A stretch of 64,000 nt of DNA from an uncultured Bacteroidales bacterium. GTDB taxonomy: Bacteria > Bacteroidota > Bacteroidia > Bacteroidales > UBA932. The notes beneath the pieces were generated by a model. That model was not told the DNA's origin. It did no database searches and worked only from the letters and a program-made list of their open reading frames with translations. Both the position numbers and the translations under genes were made by a program. This document shows, piece by piece, positions 8,757-34,008 of the stretch (within the stretch, counting starts at the first letter, position 1; each line of letters begins with the position of its first letter). The stretch spans positions 208,522 through 272,521 of the forward strand of contig CALUPG010000002.1 of NCBI GenBank assembly GCA_944322565.1, read 5' to 3'.

Positions 8757-10703
8757 ATGGCCGAAAAACTAATTTCTAAGATTCCTGAGGGTCCTTTGTC
8801 TGAAAAATGGACAAAGCATAAATCTCAGCTTCGTGTTGTCAATCCAGGCAACAAGAGGAAAATCGAGATTATTGTCGTCGGAACCGGTCTGGGCGGAGCA
8901 TCTGCAGCTGCTACGCTCGGTCAGCTCGGTTATAAAGTGAAGGTGTTCTGCATCAGTGATTCCCCTCGTCGTGCGCATTCCATTGCTGCACAGGGAGGTA
9001 TCAATGCTGCCAAGAACTATCAGAGTGACAATGACTCGGTTTACCGTCTTTTCTATGAGACCATCAAAGGTGGAGACTACCGCAGCCGCGAGGCCAATGT
9101 TTACCGTCTTGCCGAAGTGAGCGGAAATATCATTGACCAGTGCGTTGCTCAGGGTGTTCCGTTTGCCCGCGAATACGGCGGACTTCTTTCCAACCGCTCC
9201 TTCGGCGGTGCGCAGGTAAGCCGTACATTCTATGCAAGAGGCCAGACAGGACAGCAGCTTCTTCTCGGAGCATATGCCGCAATGAACAGGCAGATAGCAG
9301 AAGGTAATGTGGAAAGTTTTCCGCGTCATGAAATGCTTGATGTCGTTCTTATCAACGGCGAGGCAAAGGGAATCATCGCAAGGAATCTTGTTACAGGAGA
9401 AATTGAAAGATTCGGCGCCCATGCTGTAGTGATAGCTACCGGCGGATACGGCAATACATACTTCCTTTCTACAAATGCCATGAACAGCAATGGTTCCGCT
9501 GCATGGCAGTGCTATAAGAAAGGTGCTTATTTTGCAAATCCTTGTTTTGCTCAGATACATCCTACATGTATTCCTGTCCATGGAGACCAGCAGTCAAAAC
9601 TTACACTTATGTCCGAGTCACTCCGTAATGACGGACGCATCTGGGTACCTAAGAAGAAAGAGGATGTGATGAGGCTCCGCAAAAAGGAAGTAAAGCCTTC
9701 ACAGATACCTGAAGAAGACCGTGACTACTATCTTGAGCGCAGATACCCGGCATTCGGAAACCTTGTTCCGCGTGATGTTGCTTCACGTGCTGCAAAGGAA
9801 AGGTGTGATGCGGGATTCGGCGTCAATGAGACAGGGCTTGCGGTGTTCCTTGACTTCAGCACTGCCATCAAAAGGCTTGGTGAGGACAAGATACGTGAAA
9901 GATACGGTAACCTGTTCCAGATGTATCAGAAGATTACCGACACTGATCCATACAAGGAGCCTATGATGATTTATCCGGCCATTCATTATACTATGGGAGG
10001 CCTTTGGGTAGATTACAATCTTCAGACCACCGTTCCCGGGCTTTATGCCATCGGTGAGGCCAACTTCAGTGACCATGGAGGAAACCGTCTCGGTGCATCT
10101 GCCCTTATGCAGGGTCTTGCAGACGGATATTTCATACTTCCTTATACTATCGGAGACTATCTTGCAGGACAGTTCAAGTATCCGGTTCCGGATACAAACT
10201 CTCCTGAGTTTGCAGAGGCTGAGAACGCAGTCAGGGCCAAGATTGACAAACTTATGTCAATCAAGGGCAAGCATACTGTTGATGAGATTCATAAGAAGCT
10301 CGGCCACATCATGTGGGAGTATGTGGGCATGGCCCGTAATGAGGCTGGACTCAAGAAGGCAATTGAGATGATTCAGGAGCTCCGCAAGGAATTCTGGAGT
10401 GATGTCTATGTAGCAGGTCAGAAGGACAATTTCAACCAGGAGCTTGAAAAGGCTCTCAGGCTTGCGGATTTCCTTGAGATAGGTGAACTCATGGCCCGTG
10501 ATGCCCTTCACCGCAAGGAGTCCTGCGGAGGACATTTCCGTGAAGAGATGCAGACGGAAGACGGTGAGACCAAGCGTGATGACGAGCATTTCATGTATGT
10601 TGCAGCCTGGGAATACAAAGGTGACGATAAGGAGCCGGAACTTCACAAGGAGCCTCTCGTCTATGAGAATATCAAGATAGCTACCAGAAACTATAAAGAC
10701 TAA
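8757..10703 (+). CDS. sdhA: Succinate dehydrogenase/fumarate reductase flavoprotein subunit
   Basis: FAD-binding VVGTGLGG, covalent-FAD motif [31 protein letters not shown] and ESCGGHFR. Confidence 0.96.
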
Positions 10704-22580: not shown

Positions 22581-22744
22581 TTCTTTGCCAAACCTGCGAC
22601 AAAATTAAAAAATTCTACCTTTTGACAAATTTGATGTTCAAACGGAACATAAATTTCATCCGACGGGCATTTTTTTAGTATGCTTCCGCCGTCGCATCCG
22701 GAGTCTGAATGACGGATTCCGGAAGATTTAAATTTAGCTCAAGA

Positions 22745-24235
22745 ATGAAAAGAAAATTATTTGCTGCGGCATTCCTTCTTCTCCTGCCCCTTGCCCCTTC
22801 TGCGGCCGGGGCGGCTGAGGTGATGACTCTGCAGCAGTGCCGTGATTCTGCTGTCAGGAACAACATTTCCCTGAAGATGGCGCAGCAGAAGGTGACTCTG
22901 GCCGGCTATGACAGAAAAATAGCCATGGCGAATTATTTCCCCGGGATTTCCGTCACCGGGGCTTATATGTACAACAGCAGGAATCTCAGCCTGCTTTCTC
23001 AGGAGAAGTCGGACATGCTGACAGGTCTGGGAACCGGTATCCAGGGGTCCCTGCATTCCGGCCTGGAGAATCTGATGTCCGACCCGGTGTTTTCCTCCAT
23101 CCTGCAGGAAAATCCTGGCATGATGAAGCTGATGGAGGAACTCATGTCGGCTGACATAGCATCCTCGGTCAATGCCATCGGCTCTGAAATCAACAGAGCA
23201 TTTGAACTTGACATCCATAATGTGTTTGCCGGGACAGTTTCACTGAGGCAGCCGGTCTTCGCCGGAGGAAAAATCATCAATGCCAACCGTCTGGCGAAGC
23301 TTGCCGAAGACCTTGCCCGGTCGCAGTATGATATGGAGTATAGGGCCGTCGTGTCGGAAGTGGACAACGCCTACTGGCAGATTGTTTCAATTTCCAACAA
23401 GAAGAGACTCGCACAGGATTATGCCGACCTGCTGGAAATGATGCTGCATGATACCGAAGTTCTTGTAGAGGAGGGAATGGCGACCCGTGCCGACCTGCTG
23501 TCTGTAAAAGTCCGGGCCAATGAAGCTGACCTGCTTCTCACCAAGGCCGGAAACGGACTTGTGCTTGCGAAGATGCTGCTGTGCAGGCTGTGCGGACTGC
23601 CTCTTGACACGGAACTGGAGCTCGCAGACGAATGCCTTGACAAAGTCCCTCTCCCGATAATGGGAAGCAGGGCCGGCGAAGAAGAAATTTTTGCGTCGAG
23701 GCCGGAGATACGGAGCCTGGAGCTTGCCTCAAGGATTTATGGCAGAAAGGCTGCCATTGCCCGTGCCGACATGATGCCCAAGGTGGCTCTGACAGCAAAT
23801 TACCTGCTTACGAATCCCAATATGTATCACGGATACAGCAACAGCTTTGCAGGAATGTTCAATGTCGGAGTGGCCGTGGAAATACCTGTTTTCCATGGAT
23901 GTGAGGCAATGCAAAAAGTACGCAGGGCGAAGGCGGAGTCTGTCATGGCAGAGTGCATGCTAGAAGATGCGAAAAAGAAGATTGCCATGCAGGTGGAGCA
24001 GCTGCGCAGACAGGAAGACGAGGCGCTGGAGAAACTCTGCATGGCAGAGAACAGTCTCGGATGCGCCGAGGAAAATCTGCGGGCGGCAACAGCCGGCTAT
24101 GCCGAAGGCATGGTCCCTGCCAATACTCTGATGCAGGCACAGACTGCGTGGATGCAGGCACATTCTGAATATATCGATGCAGGAGTTGAGCTGCAGCTGC
24201 ATGCCGTGGCTCTGGCCCTTGCCGAGGGAAGATAG
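22745..24235 (+). CDS. TolC-family outer-membrane efflux protein
   Basis: Signal peptide and two OEP repeats (QPVFAGGKI; P.VALTANY...IPVFHG). Confidence 0.9.
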   Translation: MKRKLFAAAFLLLLPLAPSAAGAAEVMTLQQCRDSAVRNNISLKMAQQKVTLAGYDRKIAMANYFPGISVTGAYMYNSRNLSLLSQEKSDMLTGLGTGIQGSLHSGLENLMSDPVFSSILQENPGMMKLMEELMSADIASSVNAIGSEINRAFELDIHNVFAGTVSLRQPVFAGGKIINANRLAKLAEDLARSQYDMEYRAVVSEVDNAYWQIVSISNKKRLAQDYADLLEMMLHDTEVLVEEGMATRADLLSVKVRANEADLLLTKAGNGLVLAKMLLCRLCGLPLDTELELADECLDKVPLPIMGSRAGEEEIFASRPEIRSLELASRIYGRKAAIARADMMPKVALTANYLLTNPNMYHGYSNSFAGMFNVGVAVEIPVFHGCEAMQKVRRAKAESVMAECMLEDAKKKIAMQVEQLRRQEDEALEKLCMAENSLGCAEENLRAATAGYAEGMVPANTLMQAQTAWMQAHSEYIDAGVELQLHAVALALAEGR

Positions 24236-24236
24236 T

Positions 24237-25268
24237 ATGAAATACAAGACAAGGATGAATATGGAAAAGACAAAGAAAAATTATAATCTGCTTATCGGAA
24301 TCATTGCTCTGCTGGCTGTAATTGCCGTGGTGGCTGTCACAGGCTATATTGTGTCAAAGCCGAAGCCTGCTGTAATCCAGGGTCAGGCGGAGGCCACGGA
24401 ATACAGGGTATCGGGAAAAGTACCGGGAAGAATAGTGAGGTTCTATGCAGGAGAAGGGGATATGGTCTGCAAAGGCGATACTCTGGCTGAAATCGACAGT
24501 CCGGAAGTGAGGGCGAAGCTTGCACAGGCACTGGCCGTGAAATCTGCAGCGGAAGCACAGAAGGAAAAGGCTCTGGCAGGGGCAAGACAGGAACAGATAG
24601 CAGGTGCTTATGAAGTATGGCAACAGGCCCTGGCCAATGAGGAAATAATGGAAAAGTCCTTCAGCAGGGTGAGCCGCCTGTATGAACAGAATGTGGTCAG
24701 CGCCCAGAAATATGACGAGACCCAGGCAAGGTACAAGGCAGCAAAGGCGATGAGTGCGGCAGCCAAGTCCCAGTATGACATGGTCGTGGGCGGGGCGAGA
24801 AAAGAAGACAGAGATGCCGCTGCCGCCCTTGCCGAGCAGGCTGCCGGAGCCCTTGCCGAGGTCGAGTCCTATCTCGGTGAACTTTATCTCACGGCGCCTG
24901 CTGACGGAATCATTTCAGCCCGTTTTCCTAAGGCGGGAGAACTTGTGGGACAGGGGGCTCCTGTAATGGCTGTCACTGACCTTGATGATGTGTGGTTCAC
25001 GTTCAACATCAGGGAGGACATGCTCCGCGGGATGAACATAGGAGACGAGCTGACAGTCACCGTACCGGCTCTCGGCAATGCCAGTTACAGGACACGTGTC
25101 AGCTATATGAGTGTGTTGCAGTCTTATGCAACCTGGAGAGCCACAAGAGACGCGGGCGGCTATGATGCAAGGACATTTGAAGTAAGGAGTGTTCCGGAAG
25201 AAAAGATTGAGGGGCTTCTTCCGGGAATGACGGCAATAGCAATTGACCAGGGAAGGGCAGTACGATGA
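24237..25268 (+). CDS. HlyD-family membrane fusion protein
   Basis: N-terminal TM, lipoyl-like halves (VSGKVPGRI...EGDMV..GD; LTAPADGII) and a coiled coil. Confidence 0.9.
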   Translation: MKYKTRMNMEKTKKNYNLLIGIIALLAVIAVVAVTGYIVSKPKPAVIQGQAEATEYRVSGKVPGRIVRFYAGEGDMVCKGDTLAEIDSPEVRAKLAQALAVKSAAEAQKEKALAGARQEQIAGAYEVWQQALANEEIMEKSFSRVSRLYEQNVVSAQKYDETQARYKAAKAMSAAAKSQYDMVVGGARKEDRDAAAALAEQAAGALAEVESYLGELYLTAPADGIISARFPKAGELVGQGAPVMAVTDLDDVWFTFNIREDMLRGMNIGDELTVTVPALGNASYRTRVSYMSVLQSYATWRATRDAGGYDARTFEVRSVPEEKIEGLLPGMTAIAIDQGRAVR

Positions 25269-26434
25269 AATTTATGTCAAATGTCCGGTCGGCGATGCGC
25301 AGGGAACTGCGCATCATGGTGCAGCGTCCGGTGTATCTTATGGCTTCTGTCGGAGTCATGGCATTCTGCATGTTGTTTTTCAGCACATTTTTCAGGGAGG
25401 GAATACCGCAGGACCTGCCTATAGGAGTGGTGGACCTTGACAATACTTCCCTGTCAAGGAATATGGTGAGGCAGATTGACGCCACCCAACTCGGGAAAAC
25501 CATAGAATTCGTCTCATATACTGAGGCCAGGGAGGCGATGCAGACAGGAAGAATCTGCGCGTTCTGCCTCATTCCGTCCGGGATGTATGCTGATGTACTT
25601 TCCGGAAGGCAGCCGGAGTTCACTTTCTATGTCAATTCCCTGTATATGGTAGGAGGTGCACTTGCCTACAAGGACCTTCTGATGATGTCCAACATGATTT
25701 CAGGGGGAATACAGCGGGAAGTGCTCCGCAGCATGGGACTCGGTGATGAGGCTGCCATGGCCCGCATCCAGCCTGTGGCAGTGGATGCTCACCAGATAGG
25801 CAATGCGGCAACGAGCTACAATGTGTACCTTACCAACATGCTGGTTCCGGGAATACTGGAGATGTCAGTGATTCTGATGACTGTGTATGCCCTGTGTTCA
25901 GAGCTGAAATACGGGACTTCAAGACATCTTCTTGAAAAATCCGGAGGCATGATGACTGCCGCCATGACCGGGAAACTGGCAGTATATACTGTCCTGTTCA
26001 CAGCAATGGGAATTGTCTGCGACATCTTCCTGTACCATTGGGCAGGATTTCCGCTGAAAGGTTCAATATGGAACATGTTCCTTGCCACATTCCTTATGAT
26101 ATTGGCCTGTGAGGCGGTGGGATTCTTCATAGCCGGCACCCTGCCTGTCCTCCGGATTGCCCTCAGCGTAGCGGCACTTTTCAGCACTCTGGCATTGTCT
26201 CTGACCGGATTTACATTTCCTGTCGAGGCCTTGCCCCCGGCTGTCCGCGGACTGTCCGTGCTGTTCCCCCTCAGGCATTATTATCTGATTTATGTGCAGG
26301 AAACCATATTCGGGAGCGGCTTCTCAGGCTGGTATTCCCAGGCAATATGCCTGCTTCTTTTCCTTCTTCTGCCTCTGCCCGTATATGCGAGGCTAAGGGC
26401 GGCTTATGTAAACCAGAATTTTCCCCGAAAATAA
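25265..26434 (+). CDS. ABC-2 type transporter permease (YbhS-like)
   Basis: LPIGVVDLDNTSLSR periplasmic domain, six TM helices and GFTFP...P motif. Confidence 0.88.
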   Translation: MKFMSNVRSAMRRELRIMVQRPVYLMASVGVMAFCMLFFSTFFREGIPQDLPIGVVDLDNTSLSRNMVRQIDATQLGKTIEFVSYTEAREAMQTGRICAFCLIPSGMYADVLSGRQPEFTFYVNSLYMVGGALAYKDLLMMSNMISGGIQREVLRSMGLGDEAAMARIQPVAVDAHQIGNAATSYNVYLTNMLVPGILEMSVILMTVYALCSELKYGTSRHLLEKSGGMMTAAMTGKLAVYTVLFTAMGIVCDIFLYHWAGFPLKGSIWNMFLATFLMILACEAVGFFIAGTLPVLRIALSVAALFSTLALSLTGFTFPVEALPPAVRGLSVLFPLRHYYLIYVQETIFGSGFSGWYSQAICLLLFLLLPLPVYARLRAAYVNQNFPRK

Positions 26435-26454
26435 AATGCTTGTATCAAGACAGT

Positions 26455-27591
26455 ATGAAAAAATATATTGAGGCATGGATAAGAGACTGGGTGCAGATTT
26501 TTTCCAGGGAACTTCGCTATATATTCAGCGACGGAGGTGTCTTGGTAGTATTTTTCCTTGCCGGACTCGTCTATCCTCTTCTCTACGGAATCATCTATCA
26601 CAACGGGACTGTAGATGACATGCCTGTGGCTGTGATTGATGCCTCGGGCAGCAGCTCAGGCAGGGAATTCATCAGAAAACTGGATGCGACAAGGGAACTT
26701 GCGGTGACCCGCAGCTGTCCTGCAATGGCTGAGGCGGAAAAGCTGATGCAGGAGAGGGAAGTGCATGGAATCGTACTGATTCCGGAGGATTTTGACCGCT
26801 GTATTGCAGAAGGCAGGCAGGCTCATGTCTCCACATATGCCGACATGAGCAGTTTCCTGTATTACAAGAATCTCTCCATGGGAGTGAACAATGTCATGCT
26901 CGACAGCATGAGGGAAATCTCCAGGCTTCCGCAGCCCTTGCTGTATGAAGCGTCAATGCCGTACAACAGCACTTTCTCCTATACGGTGTTTTTCCTTTCG
27001 GCGGTACTGCTCATCGTCATCCAGCAGACCATGTTCTACGGCATATCAATGCTGACGGGTACCATGAGGGAGGAAAACCGCAGTCTTGCAGTCCTGCCGG
27101 ATATGCTCAATGGGAAAGGCATATCGAGAATCGTCTTGGGCAGAGGAGCAGCCTACTGGCTGATTTACATGGCAATAGGTATCTATGTTGCCGTCATTGT
27201 CCCGGCTGTTACCGGGCTTCCCCGCAACTGCAGTTTCGGCAGTGTCATTATTCTGCTGCTTTTCTATGTCTCGGCATGTGTGCTTTTCAGCTTTACTTTC
27301 AGTGCGCTTGTCCGTCACCGCGAAACTGTATTTGTAATGTTCTTGTTCATGTCTCCTGTCTGCCTTTTCCTGACAGGTTTTGCCTGGCCTCAAAGCAATT
27401 TTCCCCCTGTCTGGGAAGCATTCTCATGGATTTTCCCTTCAACATTTGCCGTAAGGGCGTTCATAAACATGAATACTGCCGGCGCAAGCCTTGGCATGGC
27501 CGGCAGTAATATTGTTGCGCTCTCGGTGCAGATTGCCGTATATTATATCCTTTCTGTCATTTTATCGGGAATTCCACGCCGTCAGGAGTGA
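26455..27591 (+). CDS. ABC-2 type transporter permease (YbhR-like)
   Basis: MPVAVIDASGSSSGREFIR, TM helices and LTGFAWP motif. Confidence 0.88.
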   Translation: MKKYIEAWIRDWVQIFSRELRYIFSDGGVLVVFFLAGLVYPLLYGIIYHNGTVDDMPVAVIDASGSSSGREFIRKLDATRELAVTRSCPAMAEAEKLMQEREVHGIVLIPEDFDRCIAEGRQAHVSTYADMSSFLYYKNLSMGVNNVMLDSMREISRLPQPLLYEASMPYNSTFSYTVFFLSAVLLIVIQQTMFYGISMLTGTMREENRSLAVLPDMLNGKGISRIVLGRGAAYWLIYMAIGIYVAVIVPAVTGLPRNCSFGSVIILLLFYVSACVLFSFTFSALVRHRETVFVMFLFMSPVCLFLTGFAWPQSNFPPVWEAFSWIFPSTFAVRAFINMNTAGASLGMAGSNIVALSVQIAVYYILSVILSGIPRRQE

Positions 27592-28549
27592 CCGTCGTCT
27601 GGCCTGCTTCCGGCCTTGCAAGGTGTCCGATAATGTCGTAGACCTGAAAGTCCCGGCGGAATTTCTCGTGCTGTCCTATCGGAATTGTGAACAGCAGGCG
27701 GCAGTCGTCACCTCCGTTCATAGCCACAGACATCGGGTCTACATTGAATTCCTTGGCAACGTCGAACATTTTTCCCGGGAACGGAATCTTGTCCACATAG
27801 ATTTTTACTCCGAATCCGCTGTCACGGGACAGCCGTTTGACAGCATCACGAAGGCCTCGGGTGACTAAATATCCGTAGGACGGGATGATTCCGGTATCTT
27901 CAAGCTGCTCTACTGTCCCGGGGTTGATTTCCGGCTTCAGGTAGGCCCCTATGAGATGCCTGTAGTCGTCCAGTTTCGGCTGGTTGAGGTCATCCTTTGT
28001 GGCAGAGAATTTCTTTTTTTCTCTTTCCAGCACCTGCATCCCCATGAATGCTCCTCCCAGATTGCCGGAAATGCATATCAGGTCCATGCTTTTGGCCGGC
28101 ATCCTTCTTTTTGCCGTGAGATTGGCCGTGAATCCGGTTGCAGATACCGAGATGCACAGGCCGTTCTGTGACGGGACAAGATCCAATGCAATATTTTTCA
28201 CTTTATGCTCTTTTGCGGCTGTCACTATGCCGTCCCATATTTCTTTTGTCTGCCCGAAGTCAAGCTTTGCGGAGAGTCCGAGTATGACGGACAGGGAAGC
28301 AGGCTTGGCCATAGATGCGTAGAGCTCACCGATGACGGAAATGACACTTTTGTAGCCCAGATGCTTGAAAGGGAAATATACGAGGTCAAAGTCAATGCCT
28401 TCAAGAAACAGTCTGGATGCCGTGCGGGCTATGTCTCCTTTTGAATCCGCTTCTGCTCCGCCGTTACACCAGGGTCTGTATCCGGTGCCTTCGAAGAGTT
28501 TTTCAATGGCCGCCGTACGGCCTATTTCAGAGAATTTTTCTTCCTGCAT
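27557..28549 (-). CDS. Thiamine-monophosphate kinase (ThiL)-like protein with degenerate active site
   Basis: ThiL scaffold motifs LEGIDFDL.Y.P.KHLGYK, DLICISGNLG and AMNGGDD.LLFTIP are retained, while the catalytic Asp motifs are not. Start at MQEEKF. Confidence 0.8.
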   Translation of the reverse strand: MQEEKFSEIGRTAAIEKLFEGTGYRPWCNGGAEADSKGDIARTASRLFLEGIDFDLVYFPFKHLGYKSVISVIGELYASMAKPASLSVILGLSAKLDFGQTKEIWDGIVTAAKEHKVKNIALDLVPSQNGLCISVSATGFTANLTAKRRMPAKSMDLICISGNLGGAFMGMQVLEREKKKFSATKDDLNQPKLDDYRHLIGAYLKPEINPGTVEQLEDTGIIPSYGYLVTRGLRDAVKRLSRDSGFGVKIYVDKIPFPGKMFDVAKEFNVDPMSVAMNGGDDCRLLFTIPIGQHEKFRRDFQVYDIIGHLARPEAGQTTVTPDGVEFPIK

Positions 28550-28760
28550 ATTGAGTCTTGATTTATTTTCAAATTTCTGAACTGATTTCTCCGCCTCAGA
28601 GTTGATACACAAAAATACAAATTTTGAATATCATCTGAAAATTCCTAATTTTGAATGATGTGAAGAATCCGCTGAATTTGATCAGACATTGTCCGGCCTG
28701 TTGATTTGAACGGGCCATATCAGGGAAATAGAATATCAACATGAAAAATATAATATCAGT

Positions 28761-29309
28761 ATGGCAACAGTAAATTTCAAGGGTTCTCCGGTGGAATTGT
28801 CCGGTGAACTTCCTAAGGTAGGGGAGGAGGCTCCCAAGTTCGGCGGCGTGAAGGGTGACCTTACGACTGTGCATCTTCCGGAATTACGTGGAAAAAAGGT
28901 GCTTATAAATATTTTCCCGAGTCTTGACACTCCGGTATGTGCGGCTTCAGTAAGACGGTTCAACAAAGAGGCCTCTGCCCTTGACAATACTGTGGTACTC
29001 TGCGTATCAAAGGATCTTCCTTTCGCCCAGTCAAGGTTCTGTGCTGCCGAAGGGTTGGAAAATGTCGTCCCTCTTTCAGTATTCAGATGCCATCATTTTG
29101 ATGAAAGATATGGCCTCACCATGACGGAAGGTCCGCTTAAGGGCCTTCTTGCCAGAGCAATCATTGTCGTGGATGAAAGCGGAACCATAGTCTATGAGCA
29201 GCTTGTTCCGGAAGTGACCGACGAACCTGACTATGAATCGGCCCTGAATATCCTGAAGAATCCGGATGCTCCGGAGAATTACCGTCTGAGCCCGGACGCT
29301 CTGAAATAA
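28761..29309 (+). CDS. tpx: Thiol peroxidase (atypical 2-Cys peroxiredoxin)
   Basis: FPSLDTPVCAASVRRFN, SKDLPFAQSRFC and LLARAIIV. Confidence 0.95.
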   Translation: MATVNFKGSPVELSGELPKVGEEAPKFGGVKGDLTTVHLPELRGKKVLINIFPSLDTPVCAASVRRFNKEASALDNTVVLCVSKDLPFAQSRFCAAEGLENVVPLSVFRCHHFDERYGLTMTEGPLKGLLARAIIVVDESGTIVYEQLVPEVTDEPDYESALNILKNPDAPENYRLSPDALK

Positions 29310-29337
29310 TAGAATATACGCAATACGGGAAGACGCA

Positions 29338-30198
29338 ATGAAAAATTTTCTGCAGACAGCATTATTGTCGTTGACGGCATTATTGTCGCCGGCGGCTTTT
29401 TCTACGGCCGACATTGCGGCCAGTTCGGCGGATGAGTCCTGCCTCAGGGTGGTGTCCTTCAATATACGCAACGGAGAGGCCAACGACGGCACCAATTCAT
29501 GGATATACCGGTATCCGGCATCCGTTCTTATGGTACGTGAAGTCAAGCCTGACATTATGGGACTTCAGGAGGCTTATGAGTATCAGGTCAATTTCCTCGC
29601 CGAGAATCTCAAGGACTACAAGTGTGTGGGTGTCGGTCGGGAAGACGGGAAGCATGAGGGAGAGCACATGTCCATCTTCTATAACAAGAAAACAGTTTCT
29701 TTGAAAAAATGGGGCACTTTCTGGCTTTCGGAGACGCCGGACGAGCCATCCCTCGGATGGGACGGGGCCTGCCGCAGGACTGCGACTTGGGCTTTGATGA
29801 AAGACAAGAGGACCGGACATTTGTTCTACTATGTCAATACTCATCTTGACCATGTGGGCAAGGCTGCGCAGCGCAACGGACTGAATCTGATTGTAGAGAA
29901 AATCACCGGGATGAATCCCGACAATCTGCCCGTGGTCCTTACCGGAGACTTCAATGTGGAGCCGGAAGACAGTATCCTTGATGTCCTTGACGGCAAGATG
30001 ACAAGTGCGAGGGATGCTGCCGTCAAGACAGACCGGCACGGGACTTACAACGACTGGGGGAAAGCATCGTCAGTGATAGACTATATCTATTTTTCTGGCT
30101 TCTCTTCCTGTCCAGAATTCCGGACTGTTACGGAAAAGTTCGGAGACTGGCCATTTGTCTCCGACCATTATCCGGTGACAGCTGACCTGAAGTTCTGA
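29338..30198 (+). CDS. Exported endonuclease/exonuclease/phosphatase-family protein
   Basis: Signal peptide, SFNIR, GLQE, NTHLD, GDFN, IDYI and SDHYPV. Confidence 0.9.
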   Translation: MKNFLQTALLSLTALLSPAAFSTADIAASSADESCLRVVSFNIRNGEANDGTNSWIYRYPASVLMVREVKPDIMGLQEAYEYQVNFLAENLKDYKCVGVGREDGKHEGEHMSIFYNKKTVSLKKWGTFWLSETPDEPSLGWDGACRRTATWALMKDKRTGHLFYYVNTHLDHVGKAAQRNGLNLIVEKITGMNPDNLPVVLTGDFNVEPEDSILDVLDGKMTSARDAAVKTDRHGTYNDWGKASSVIDYIYFSGFSSCPEFRTVTEKFGDWPFVSDHYPVTADLKF

Positions 30199-30201
30199 CT
30201 T

Positions 30202-33200
30202 CTACCTGGTGACTATCTGATACCCGATGCCGATGCTCTCAAGCTGGTCCATCAGCTGCTGGTTGAGAGTCACCTGGAATTTCCTTGACAGGAAATCTAC
30301 CTTGAAATGAGTCTGTGGATCATGCAGGGTCATGGTCAGGGGAATGCTGCCCTTGTTCCTTTTGATGATATCCACAAGGCTTTTCCTGAAGTCTCCTGAC
30401 AACAGGGTTGTGGAGATGCTGAGCTTGAGGCTTTTCACATATGTTTCGGCAACATTGCCCAGATGGATGATTTTCTTGATTCTGAAGCCGAATGGAGGGT
30501 CTCCCTTGAGCTTTCTTTCTTCAGGGCTTCTCGGGTAGATTTCTTCTACTCTGCCTTCAATGAACACTGCCGAATTCATTTCAAGCTGCTTTTTAAGGTC
30601 ATCTATGGCCTTTCCGTTGACGGACAATTCATAGCTTCCCTCAAAATCTTCGATAGTGGCCCGGAAGAAAGGTTTTCCGAACCTGTTGACACCGGAGTTC
30701 ACCGCTGTTATGAAGCCTCCTATGGCAGCATTCTGCGGGGATTTCTTCTCAAAGCAGTCATCAATGAAAGGTTTCAGAGAATCAAGGTGGACTGAAGTGA
30801 AATTCTTCAGTTCAAATGCATACCTGTCAAGCGGATGAGATGACAGATACATGCCGACGAGCTCTTTCTCCTGATGCAGAAGTTCGAGGGTATTCTCTTC
30901 ACCAGTCATTTCCGGCATGTCAGGCCGCTTCGGCTTCATTTCTTCAGAATCCCCGAAAAGAGATACGGATTCCGCCATCGCATCTTTCCTGTAGAGGTCC
31001 GCATATCTTACAAGGGCGTCAAGGAATATGTCTCCGGAGCCTGTGGGTCTCGTATATTGGCTTCTCTTATATCCGAAACTGTCGAATGCGCCTGAATACA
31101 GAAGGGAATCGTATGCCTTTCTGTTGACCGTGCCTGCCATCCGTTCTGCAAAGTCAAAAATATCCTTGAAAATACCGTGTTCTTCCCGTTCCTTCAGAAT
31201 GGCAGTCACTATATTGTCCCCGAATCCCTTGATGCCGCCGAGTCCGAAACGGATGTTCCCTGCCTTGTTGACGGTAAATCGGGCGTCACTCTCGTTTATG
31301 TCAGGGTTCAGGACTTTTATCCGGGATTTCTTGGCGTCATCTATTATTTTCTTTATCTCATCCATGTTGGAGAGATTCTTGCTCAGGTTGGCTGCCTGAA
31401 ATTCAGCAGGATAATGGGCTTTCAGGTAACCTGTCTGGTAGCTGACCCAAGCATAGCATGTGGCGTGGGACTTGTTGAAGGCATACTGGGCGAATTTCCT
31501 CCAGTCATTCCATATTTTCTTGAGTGTTTTTTCCGGATGCCCGTTGGCTTTGCCTCCTTTGAGAAACTTGTCCCTGAGTGACTCCAGGACATCCAGCTGC
31601 TTTTTTCCCATGGCCTTGCGGAGCTTGTCGGCTTCTCCTTTCGTGAACCCTGCAAGTTTCTGCGACAGAAGCATGACCTGCTCCTGATACACAGTGATGC
31701 CGTATGTGTCCTGAAGATATTCTTCCATTTCCGGCAGGTCGTAGGTAATCTGTTCCCGTCCCTGCTTCCTGTCGACGAATGACGGAATATAATCCATAGG
31801 ACCCGGTCTGTACAGGGCATTCATGGCTATCAGATCCTCAAACCTTGTGGGCTCAAGCTTCTGAAGCCATTGCTTCATGCCTTCAGACTCGAACTGGAAT
31901 ACGCTTGTAGTGTCTCCCCGTCCGTACAGGGCGTATGTAAGCGGGTCATCAATAGGGATTTTCTCTATGTCGATATCGATTCCGTGCCGTTTCCTGATAT
32001 TTTCCAGGCATTCCTTTATGATGGACAAGGTCCTGAGTCCGAGAAAGTCCATCTTGAGCATTCCGACGTCCTCTATGAAGCAGCCCTCGTACTGGGAAAC
32101 CCACACATCCTCGCCCGTCGCCTTGTCTGCCGCTATGCTTATTGGGATATAGTCCGTGAGGTCGCCCCGTCCTATAATCATGGCGCAGGCATGGACTCCA
32201 GTCTGTCGGATGCATCCCTCCAGCTTCAGGGCATAAGTCAATACATCGCGGGTGAGTTCAGGGCCGTTTTCATATTCGTTCTTGAGTTCACTGATGTATT
32301 TGATGCAGTTTTTCAGGGTCGGCTTGTAGTCTTTCTCCACTTCTCCCTTCTTGAATCTCCTGACAGCCCTGATTGTCTGTCCCTCATGCTCCGGATCAGG
32401 GATTTCAACTTCTTTTTCTATGATTTTGAAGTCCTTGTCATCTTCGGTAAGTTCCTCATCCTCCTTCATCGGGATTTCCTGCATCTCCTTGACCTTGATG
32501 GGCCTGTCCGGAATCATCTTGGTAAGCCTGTTGGATTCTTCCATCGGCATGTTGCTGACCCTTCCGACATCTTTTATTGCCATCTTGGCCGCCATTGTGC
32601 CGAAAGTAATGACATGTGAGATGTGGTCCTTCCCGTATGTGTCCTCCACATATTTGAAGACGCGGTAACGCCCGTCATCGTCAAAGTCGATGTCTATATC
32701 AGGCATGGAAATGCGGTCCGGATTCAGGAAACGCTCGAAAAGGAGCTGATATTTGATCGGGTCGATATTCGTGATGCCAAGGCAGTAGGCTACGGCAGAG
32801 CCGGCTGCAGAGCCTCTTCCCGGACCTACTGAAATGCCGTTTCTACGTGCCGCCGCAATGAAGTCCTGCACGATGAGGAAGTAGTCGGGAAATCCCATTC
32901 TGCTGATTGTCTTCAATTCGAAGTCAATGCGTTCTGCCTGCTCTGCATTGAGCTCACCATATCTCCGTGCTGCGCCTTCATAGCACAAGTGGCACAGATA
33001 GGCGACGGAATGAGTGAAGCCTTCGCCCCTGTCATTTCCGTCCTTGTCGCACCGTCCCGCATCAATGATATCCTTGTATTTTTCAAGATGACCCTCAATA
33101 TCTTTCATGAATTCAGGGTCAATCCGGAATATAGGCAGCACATGGCCTCTGTCTATGGTATAGTTTTCTATCTTGTCACAGACTTCAAGAGTGTTTGCAA

Positions 33201-34008
33201 GAAATTCCGGATGGTCAGGGAATAGAGCGGCCATTTCTTCTTCACTCTTGAGATATTCCTGCTGAGTATATCTCAGTCTTTTTTCGTCAGTCAGATATGC
33301 GTTGGTAGTCAGACAGATGAGCCTGTCGTGCGCCGGGCCGTCCTCTTTGCGGACAAAGTGGGCGTCATTGGTGGCCACAATCTTGACACCGGTCTTCTTC
33401 GCCAGTTCGATAATCCCTGCAAGCGCGATTTTCTGTCTTTCCCATACTTCCTGTGACTGGTTCGGCACTTCAGTGCGATGCAGCTGAACTTCAAGGTAGT
33501 AATCATCCCCGAATACTTTCTTATGCCATTCAATGGCCTTTTCTGCTGCAGCAAAGTCTCCGTCAATTATGTTCCTCGGCACTTCTCCGGCAATGCAGGC
33601 CGAGCAGCATATCAGGTCCTTTGAATATTTTTCAATCACCTCGTGGCTGACCCTCGGCTTATAGTACATTCCCTCAATGTGCCCGGTAGACACGATTTTC
33701 ATGAGATTCCTGTAGCCGTTGTAGTTCTTGGCCAGAAGAATGAGGTGATAATAGTCCTTGTGGTCCCTGTCCTTCAGCCTGTGGTCATAATGCCTTGTCA
33801 CATATATCTCGCATCCGACAATAGGCTTTACGGAAGGATGCTTTTTCGCGAATTTGAAAAATTCCTTGACTCCGTACATATTCCCGTGGTCAGTGATGGC
33901 GAGTCCAGGCATTCCAAGTTCTTCGGCCCTGTTGAAAAGATTTTCGATTGATGACTGGCCGTCAAGAATTGAATACTGGGTATGGACGTGAAGGTGGACA
34001 AATGACAT
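30202..34008 (-). CDS. dnaE: DNA polymerase III alpha subunit
   Basis: PHP domain (HLHVH, TDHGNM), GPGRGSAAGS, catalytic PDIDIDF, KMDFLGL and YAFNKSH. Confidence 0.98.
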   Translation of the reverse strand: MSFVHLHVHTQYSILDGQSSIENLFNRAEELGMPGLAITDHGNMYGVKEFFKFAKKHPSVKPIVGCEIYVTRHYDHRLKDRDHKDYYHLILLAKNYNGYRNLMKIVSTGHIEGMYYKPRVSHEVIEKYSKDLICCSACIAGEVPRNIIDGDFAAAEKAIEWHKKVFGDDYYLEVQLHRTEVPNQSQEVWERQKIALAGIIELAKKTGVKIVATNDAHFVRKEDGPAHDRLICLTTNAYLTDEKRLRYTQQEYLKSEEEMAALFPDHPEFLANTLEVCDKIENYTIDRGHVLPIFRIDPEFMKDIEGHLEKYKDIIDAGRCDKDGNDRGEGFTHSVAYLCHLCYEGAARRYGELNAEQAERIDFELKTISRMGFPDYFLIVQDFIAAARRNGISVGPGRGSAAGSAVAYCLGITNIDPIKYQLLFERFLNPDRISMPDIDIDFDDDGRYRVFKYVEDTYGKDHISHVITFGTMAAKMAIKDVGRVSNMPMEESNRLTKMIPDRPIKVKEMQEIPMKEDEELTEDDKDFKIIEKEVEIPDPEHEGQTIRAVRRFKKGEVEKDYKPTLKNCIKYISELKNEYENGPELTRDVLTYALKLEGCIRQTGVHACAMIIGRGDLTDYIPISIAADKATGEDVWVSQYEGCFIEDVGMLKMDFLGLRTLSIIKECLENIRKRHGIDIDIEKIPIDDPLTYALYGRGDTTSVFQFESEGMKQWLQKLEPTRFEDLIAMNALYRPGPMDYIPSFVDRKQGREQITYDLPEMEEYLQDTYGITVYQEQVMLLSQKLAGFTKGEADKLRKAMGKKQLDVLESLRDKFLKGGKANGHPEKTLKKIWNDWRKFAQYAFNKSHATCYAWVSYQTGYLKAHYPAEFQAANLSKNLSNMDEIKKIIDDAKKSRIKVLNPDINESDARFTVNKAGNIRFGLGGIKGFGDNIVTAILKEREEHGIFKDIFDFAERMAGTVNRKAYDSLLYSGAFDSFGYKRSQYTRPTGSGDIFLDALVRYADLYRKDAMAESVSLFGDSEEMKPKRPDMPEMTGEENTLELLHQEKELVGMYLSSHPLDRYAFELKNFTSVHLDSLKPFIDDCFEKKSPQNAAIGGFITAVNSGVNRFGKPFFRATIEDFEGSYELSVNGKAIDDLKKQLEMNSAVFIEGRVEEIYPRSPEERKLKGDPPFGFRIKKIIHLGNVAETYVKSLKLSISTTLLSGDFRKSLVDIIKRNKGSIPLTMTLHDPQTHFKVDFLSRKFQVTLNQQLMDQLESIGIGYQIVTR

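Follow-up and report, generated by a model that had tools for sequence, protein, structure and literature searches.

A putative pseudo-kinase derived from thiamine-monophosphate kinase (ThiL) and maintained by purifying selection in Candidatus Cryptobacteroides and related UBA932 genera

Introduction

Thiamine-monophosphate kinase (ThiL; EC 2.7.4.16; equivalog model TIGR01379) belongs to the PurM/AIR-synthase superfamily (PurM, PurL, HypE, SelD; PF00586), whose characterised members are Mg-ATP-dependent enzymes using the same acidic cluster. We know of no pseudo-enzyme branch of this superfamily, and literature searches also found none. The ThiL-like gene addressed here is located at positions 27557-28549, on the complementary strand, of a 64,000-nucleotide stretch of DNA (the window; contig CALUPG010000002.1, positions 208,522 to 272,521) whose source organism is a Candidatus Cryptobacteroides species of the family UBA932, order Bacteroidales. 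Its product of 330 amino acids, designated P0001, retains the predicted ThiL fold and lacks almost every residue that binds Mg2+ and ATP, together with a His that contacts thiamine monophosphate (TMP). The explanation that we favour, with a probability of about three in four, is that this Cryptobacteroides orthologue of Bacteroidales thiL encodes a pseudo-kinase, which is kept intact by strong purifying selection and would be retained for a catalysis-free role, with thiamine pyrophosphate (TPP) being supplied via thiamine pyrophosphokinase (TPK).

Solved ThiL structures, namely AaThiL (1VQV and 3C9R-U), AbThiL (5CC8 and 5DD7) and PaThiL (8YKS and 8YKU), have a two-domain fold in common, which P0001 is predicted to share. 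In PaThiL, the strictly conserved metal ligands are Asp30, Asp47, Asp75 and Asp211, the conserved loops are Gly28-Asp29-Asp30 and Ser213-Asp214-Gly215-Leu216, Asp122 holds Mg1 with Gly121 and Thr123 binding the ribose and adenine, and His54' and Tyr189' hydrogen-bond TMP (PMC13254938). The nucleotide ribose-phosphate is contacted by the GDD loop in AbThiL (PMC6416309). Synthesis of TPP can also proceed independently of ThiL, as in S. aureus, where the ThiE reaction is followed by dephosphorylation of TMP and then by TPK (PMC2766623). However, S. aureus, yeast and Plasmodium, in which such ThiL-independent synthesis is known, are simply without thiL, whereas the genome studied here retains what appears to be a dead thiL. 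Pseudo-kinases and pseudo-enzymes in general are likewise enzyme homologues without catalytic residues that are conserved by selection, but unlike general pseudo-kinases, P0001 has a predicted PurM-like and not a protein-kinase-like fold.

Loss of catalytic residues on a retained ThiL fold

Substitutions in P0001 were mapped by alignment to A. aeolicus (Aa) ThiL and 75 intact ThiLs. The whole alignment comprised 118 sequences (64 Bacteroidales ThiLs, 11 foreign ThiLs and 43 degenerate forms), and the degenerate forms of the P0001 kind, hereafter called P-type, were tallied in 38 sequences. The Aa numbering of the relevant residues (D27, D43, H50, D71, D207, S209 and D210) was taken from alignments. 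All residue changes that an earlier note on this DNA had reported from its letters were found to be present. GDDAA is absent, with an alignment gap at N29-E33, TTD is changed to A44-S45-R46, NxSD to V72-I73-G74-E75, DISDG to L228-V229-T230-R231-G232, and GGD to A121-L122-D123 with retention of its Asp. Equivalents of the metal-binding Asp residues (Aa D27, D43, D71, D207, D210; Pa D30, D47, D75, D211, D214) are a gap, R46, E75, L228 and R231, and besides the lost GDD loop, four of the five remaining metal-binding Asp residues are replaced. Unlike ThiL, P0001 is without the GDD loop, Asp43, Asp71, Asp207 and Asp210 (Aa), the Gly-Gly and Thr of GGDT and the TMP-contacting His. The ATP ribose/adenine site of ThiL is not recognisable, given that the GDD loop is gone and GGDT reads A121-L122-D123-L124. 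P0001 has a marginal N-domain match to the PurM/AIR-synthase superfamily, whose structures are also its next-best fold matches, and differs from the characterised members in having no acidic cluster. Codons of the replaced residues are listed in Table 1.

Table 1. Positions in the window of the degenerate thiL gene, of its altered codons and of neighbouring features
Feature	Positions	Strand	Remarks
Degenerate ThiL coding sequence (CDS; P0001, 330 aa)	27557..28549	-	Open frame; TIGR01379 116 bits; AlphaFold2 pLDDT 87.7
Arg46 codon, replacing metal-binding Asp (Aa D43 / Pa D47)	28412..28414	-	
Asp53 codon, replacing TMP-contacting His (Aa H50 / Pa H54)	28391..28393	-	
Gly74-Glu75 codons, replacing Ser-Asp (Aa S70-D71 / Pa D75)	28325..28330	-	
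Ala121-Leu122-Asp123-Leu124 codons, replacing ribose/adenine/Mg1 motif G-G-D-T, only Asp kept	28178..28189	-	
Leu228-Val229-Thr230-Arg231 codons, replacing D-I-S-D (Aa D207, S209, D210)	27857..27868	-	
Junction of 742-bp deletion relative to locus L083	27555..27560	.	Creates TGA stop; AQGW tail and DUF4923 gene lost
ABC-2 permease gene, convergent	26452..27591	+	3' end overlaps 3' end of ThiL-like CDS by 35 bp
Redoxin-family (Tpx-like) peroxiredoxin and secreted Exo_endo_phos-family protein genes, divergent neighbours	28761..30198	+	
dnaE, upstream on the strand of the ThiL-like gene	30202..34008	-	Frequent synteny in Cryptobacteroides

These changes are shared by the P-type group at large. 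The substituted catalytic positions show little or no variation among the 75 intact ThiLs and are replaced in 38/38 P-type sequences, so that the loss is not a matter of chance. Position 46 is acidic in 75/75 intact ThiLs (Glu in five, Asp in the others) and Arg or Lys in 32/38 P-type sequences, position 74 is Gly in all degenerate forms, and position 75 is Glu in Cryptobacteroides and Glu, Pro, Asp or Asn in other P-type genera. About 100 positions are conserved in intact Bacteroidales ThiL, of which 47 are retained in P-type sequences, 45 are relaxed and eight now have another residue that is itself conserved (H to D, S to G, Y to W, Y to H, G to L, T to L, M to G and S to T). In P-type proteins, Arg/Lys mostly occupies the former Mg-ligand positions 46 and 231 and also replaces the Glu in GGEDYE (R284), and the median net charge is -4.5 to -6 as compared to -15 to -19 in intact ThiLs, that is about 10-14 units less negative.

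The scaffold is retained in its motifs EGxxFDLxYxPxKHLGYK, DLICxSG and NGGDD. Taken more fully, P0001 and ThiL have in common EGxxFDLxYxPLKHLGYK, DLICxSGxLGxA, NGG(D/E)D and IIGH, with the AQGW tail being shared by relatives of P0001. Two of the retained elements, EGxxFDLxYxPLKHLGYK and NGGDD, form part of the site on its TMP side. P0001 and intact Bacteroidales ThiL share 33-41% sequence identity, and the closest solved structures by sequence are ThiL (E ~3e-10). On TIGR01379, P0001 scores 116.2 bits (120.2 on the genome), under the curated cut-off of 184.15, with intact Bacteroidales ThiLs scoring 280-336 bits. The match to the Pfam AIRS N-domain PF00586 is marginal (27.3 bits, with a gathering score of 24), and the C-domain PF02769 was not reported in the Pfam scan; the fold is complete by Foldseek. 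The AlphaFold2 model, built on 64 homologues, has a pLDDT of 87.7 and a pTM of 0.87, and in a Foldseek search of the PDB the first 17 places are taken by ThiL structures (PaThiL 8YKU, AaThiL and AbThiL; TM 0.75-0.82, E ~1e-19 to 3e-22), followed by HypE, SelD and PurM structures. P0001 is thus confidently predicted to adopt the ThiL two-domain fold.

Purifying selection and orthology

The full open frame noted earlier was confirmed as 330 codons, and the start is the ATG at 28549 and not the upstream TTG at 28612, since homologues open at the same MxEExFSxxGR. Intact frames of at least 329 amino acids are present in 98/98 P-type loci, without frameshifts in relatives, and the ratio of nonsynonymous to synonymous substitutions (dN/dS, NG86) among P-type genes has a median of 0.066 and a range of 0.010-0.127 over 859 pairs, as compared to 0.09 for the degenerate forms of genus g190 and 0.078 for intact UBA932 ThiL. 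Because of the low dN/dS and the 98/98 intact frames, simple decay is excluded. Hence, that part of the earlier proposal which described a ThiL-derived protein under selection holds, and P0001 is a pseudo-enzyme in the operational sense of an enzyme homologue without essential catalytic residues under purifying selection. The proposed role as a sensor, scaffold or regulator is one that such a protein might have.

The protein collection contains approximately 3000 homologues, of which the best 120 have identities of 62-98% and lengths of ~330-340 amino acids, mostly ~333-336. Among these 120, some are named thiamine-phosphate kinase (NCBI, JGI) and one AIR synthase related protein. In an order-wide sample of 201 genomes, 194 have a ThiL over the TIGR01379 cut-off, and a closer match to P0001 was found only in the two other UBA932 genomes of the sample (61% and 45% identity), the matches elsewhere being intact ThiL at 32-41%; no P-type match was found outside UBA932 in this sample. 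Three order genomes below the cut-off were considered as candidates for degenerate ThiL in other Bacteroidales families, and were found to have contig-edge fragments or other AIRS proteins instead. Within a family sample of 151 genomes, a ThiL-like gene is present in 97/97 high-quality genomes, and 59/151 score over the cut-off.

In the maximum-likelihood tree, degenerate forms comprise one clade (SH-aLRT 98) made up of the P-type, genus g190, whose forms still carry GDDAA, and genome G225. This clade sits on long stem branches within UBA932 intact ThiL. A divergent sufB neighbour is found with intact Bacteroidales thiL, with the g190 and G225 forms and in 12 P-type loci of other genera, and in Cryptobacteroides the P-type gene is relocated beside dnaE and genes of the Exo_endo_phos and redoxin (Tpx-like) families. 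Based on the nesting in the tree and the thiL-sufB arrangement in related loci, the P0001 gene is the UBA932 positional orthologue of Bacteroidales thiL and not a paralogue. At one such locus (G237, L178 1671-2324), where the thiL-like gene is divergent from sufB, a gene for a transporter of the PnuC family, which includes the thiamine transporter PnuT, lies between sufB and sufC.

Twelve family genomes carry two ThiL-like genes, one P-type and one intact. In ten of these, the intact copy is 21-27% identical to P0001, adjoins thiE where checked and falls outside all Bacteroidales ThiL in the tree. As to the remaining two, the intact copy of G212 is beside a thiE fragment, and that of G202 is a partial match on a contig other than that of thiE. 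The intact copy in at least those ten genomes is hence foreign and part of a thiamine operon. Foreign thiL beside thiE can be seen at L033-L035, L039, L046-L049, L055 and L061, for example at G343:C14:36413-38856, and some of these have a TPP riboswitch upstream.

Complementarity with thiamine pyrophosphokinase

A second intact thiL was sought in the source genome by profile search and none was found, the sole other match being PurM. TPK is present, as are thiD and, in one operon, thiE, a thi4-type thiazole synthase gene and a tenI-like gene; neither thiC nor any TPP riboswitch occurs in the source genome. Direct uptake of TPP, which had been suggested earlier, is hence not required, since with thiD, thi4, thiE and TPK, TPP can come via a ThiL-independent route as in S. 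aureus. Most simply, the route of the source genome would be of the same type as that of S. aureus, yeast and Plasmodium (PMC2766623).

The operon with thiE, the thi4-type gene (sulfide-dependent ADP-thiazole synthase) and the tenI-like gene is located at G000:C4:6872-9015 (L185) and C4:9592-10446, with a TetR-family regulator gene divergently upstream. Two other Cryptobacteroides genomes (G005 and G323) have the same thiE operon, also without a riboswitch. A link of the P-type form to TPP riboswitches was considered and dropped, as there is none in the source genome yet they are present in most P-type genomes, and hence no correlation. Upstream of TPK in the source genome (C13, L186 3495-6002) lies an 835-amino-acid open reading frame with matches to LptF/G-like permease and methionyl-tRNA formyltransferase, which may be two genes.

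The occurrence of TPK, thiE and the different ThiL forms was surveyed in 52 genomes of the family UBA932 (Table 2).

Table 2. Genomes with TPK and thiE in 52 UBA932 genomes grouped by ThiL form
ThiL form	Genomes	TPK	thiE
P-type only	21	21	7
g190 and G225	9	9	0
P-type and foreign ThiL	12	1	12
Intact Bacteroidales ThiL only	10	8	0

TPK is present in 30/30 genomes without an intact ThiL, and 13 of the 22 with an intact ThiL lack TPK, with the groups being as tabulated. Conversely, 13/13 genomes without TPK contain an intact ThiL, usually the foreign copy next to thiE, or in genus g189 the intact Bacteroidales-type thiL. The association has a p value of 8e-7 in a Fisher test that ignores phylogeny, but switches occur inside genera g181 and g165. 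P-type genomes with thiE but without TPK all carry foreign thiL, and no sampled genome relies on a degenerate form without TPK or intact ThiL. Among a further 15 genomes not used in forming this rule, which carry the other partly degenerate ThiLs described below, 13 have TPK and the other two are 85-89% complete. Given the pattern of TPK and intact ThiL and the known ThiL-less route, we infer that the P-type protein is not a TMP kinase.

Further degenerate ThiL lineages

Loss of catalytic residues is not confined to the P-type clade. UBA932 genera g187, g192, g194 and g176 and one g173 genome (L204-L213) exhibit different and partial degenerations, such as GND / AQ / NK / GVD / SAVN. In the tree, these partly degenerate genera fall outside the P-type clade and make up three or more independently degenerate lineages, with dN/dS of 0.09-0.10. 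With 220-250 bits their ThiLs are above the TIGR01379 cut-off, and the clearly degenerate form of G225 passes at 188 bits, and thus this cut-off does not appear to separate active from putatively inactive forms. Among 1.84 billion representative proteins, further clusters of full-length ThiL-like proteins with partial loss were found, designated X1-X3 (P0136-P0246), which have a Bacteroidota-type scaffold and fall outside the UBA932 degenerate clade in the tree. The repeated loss of catalysis, with the gene itself being kept each time, is the strongest pointer to a role that does not depend on catalysis.

Discussion

According to the explanation favoured here, P0001 would no longer phosphorylate TMP, and in the source genome TMP would be made by the products of thiD, thi4 and thiE, then dephosphorylated, and the resulting thiamine pyrophosphorylated by TPK. 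P0001 itself would be retained for a role without catalysis. The replacement of Mg2+-binding Asp residues by Arg/Lys, together with the shift in net charge by about 10-14 units, faintly suggests, as the likeliest mechanism, that an anionic, phosphate-bearing ligand, possibly thiamine phosphate, might be bound metal-free in the former acidic cleft between subunits, where several Mg2+ ions used to be held, and such binding would serve sensing, sequestering or scaffolding.

Several observations weigh against this explanation. The retained Asp123, together with Glu75 in Cryptobacteroides, might still provide a site of reduced extent for a metal or nucleotide. P-type genera differ in the residues at the former catalytic positions (75 being E/P/D/N and 231 being R/K/N/D), which speaks against a single, well-defined new chemistry of binding. 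Neighbourhoods of 95 P-type loci reveal no conserved operon partner that hints at a function, the Fisher test disregards phylogeny, and the AlphaFold2 model is that of a monomer, while the proposed site is a dimer cleft. Furthermore, in three genomes (G209, G215 and G216) with thiC and thiE, the P-type protein is the sole ThiL form, a gene content that would accord with residual kinase activity, although TPK is likewise present in each of them.

Such residual activity is the essence of one alternative, in which the protein is still a thiamine-phosphate kinase but rewired, for example with one metal on Glu75 and Asp123 and with Arg46 and Arg231 stabilising phosphates. Besides the genomes with thiC and thiE that have only the P-type form, the invariance of Asp123, that of Glu75 within Cryptobacteroides, the strong constraint seen in dN/dS and the naming of some members as thiamine-phosphate kinase by NCBI and JGI would be in line with it. 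However, deletion of the GDD loop, the change of the Gly-Gly of the ribose/adenine site to Ser/Ala-Leu and of its Thr to Leu, replacement of the TMP-contacting His, the presence of Pro, Asn or Asp at position 75 in other P-type genera and a TIGR01379 score far under the cut-off render a rewired kinase quite improbable, the more so as no genome relies on the P-type protein without TPK or an intact foreign ThiL. Alternatively, a new catalytic activity could have arisen on the ThiL scaffold, acting on another phospho-substrate or in an ATP-independent reaction such as TMP hydrolysis, and the eight conserved switches listed above and the need for a TMP phosphatase in genomes with thiE and TPK (PMC2766623) would fit with this. 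It is nevertheless unlikely, because the protein is no less conserved in genomes without thiE, and in those with a foreign ThiL and no TPK, for which a TMP phosphatase would have no use or would even do harm, and because there is no new set of catalytic-type residues that all P-type genera share without variation.

The two other alternatives concern the origin of the gene. An old ThiL paralogue with its own function, not derived from the orthologous thiL, was considered in view of the twelve sampled genomes that hold both P-type and intact ThiL, but was rejected as highly improbable on identity, thiE adjacency, tree and synteny: the intact copy is distant from P0001, lies beside thiE and is placed outside all Bacteroidales ThiL, whereas the degenerate clade is nested inside UBA932 ThiL, related loci have sufB next to them, as intact Bacteroidales thiL does, and P-type matches in the order-wide sample are confined to UBA932. 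As for a decaying thiL pseudogene, open by chance in the source genome, the lost catalytic residues and the C-terminal tail deleted in this species might be taken to indicate it, but with dN/dS of 0.01-0.13, intact frames in every P-type locus, some 3000 homologues with the best 120 of uniform length and a confidently predicted fold, the probability of this is close to nil.

Beyond the pseudo-kinase reading of P0001, it can tentatively be proposed, though with considerable doubt, that Bacteroidales-type ThiL in general has a second, catalysis-independent and indispensable function, as a sensor of thiamine phosphate or anions or as a scaffold at the dimer cleft, with the kinase chemistry decaying where TPK supplies TPP and selection then acting on the second function alone. 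Such a function would explain the at least four separate catalytic losses in UBA932, the apparent losses in X1-X3 and the fact that the gene is never lost.

No description of an inactive ThiL was found in full-text literature searches, and to our knowledge the P-type proteins would give the PurM/ThiL superfamily its first conserved branch of pseudo-enzymes. A putatively dead ThiL is fixed across much of UBA932, a major uncultured family of gut and rumen that includes Cryptobacteroides, and its repeated loss of catalysis without gene loss points to an unrecognised non-enzymatic role of a 'housekeeping' vitamin enzyme. Public annotation of several members as thiamine-phosphate kinase and the permissive TIGR01379 cut-off, which partly degenerate forms pass at 188-250 bits, would therefore lead to over-counting of ThiL activity and mis-assigned auxotrophy when vitamin B1 metabolism is reconstructed for gut microbiomes. 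The complementarity of TPK and intact ThiL offers a simple rule for correcting ThiL calls.

C-terminal deletion and gene neighbourhood

The GW tail of ThiL is missing from P0001, as the earlier note had remarked, but this applies to this species only; 95/98 relatives keep the tail. Relatives end with KAQGW(K..), while P0001 ends with FPIK followed by TGA, and P0002, which is 98% identical, ends at the same residue. In comparison with L083, a 90%-identical locus of Ca. Cryptobacteroides gallistercoris, blastn gave two collinear blocks (window 28700-27561 to L083 7854-8989, and window 27554-25501 to L083 9732-11795). The omitted L083 segment, 8990-9731, carries the last 10 codons and a gene for a 220-amino-acid DUF4923 lipocalin-like secreted protein. 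As the tail is kept in nearly all relatives and a DUF4923 gene follows the P-type gene in 24 loci, tail loss is most parsimoniously attributed to a recent deletion in this lineage. Owing to this 742-bp deletion, the ThiL-like CDS overlaps with the convergent ABC-2 permease gene.

Clustering of the neighbourhoods of the 95 P-type loci in search of an operon partner yielded dnaE, Exo_endo_phos, DUF4923 and a convergent glyS, none being consistent or functionally suggestive. dnaE is within three genes of the P-type gene in 49/95 loci, and the Exo_endo_phos gene is upstream of it in 41/95. The genes at window positions 22709-27591, coding for a TolC-like protein, an HlyD-like protein and two ABC-2 permeases, constitute an apparent efflux operon convergent on the ThiL-like gene, and L083 has this operon as well.

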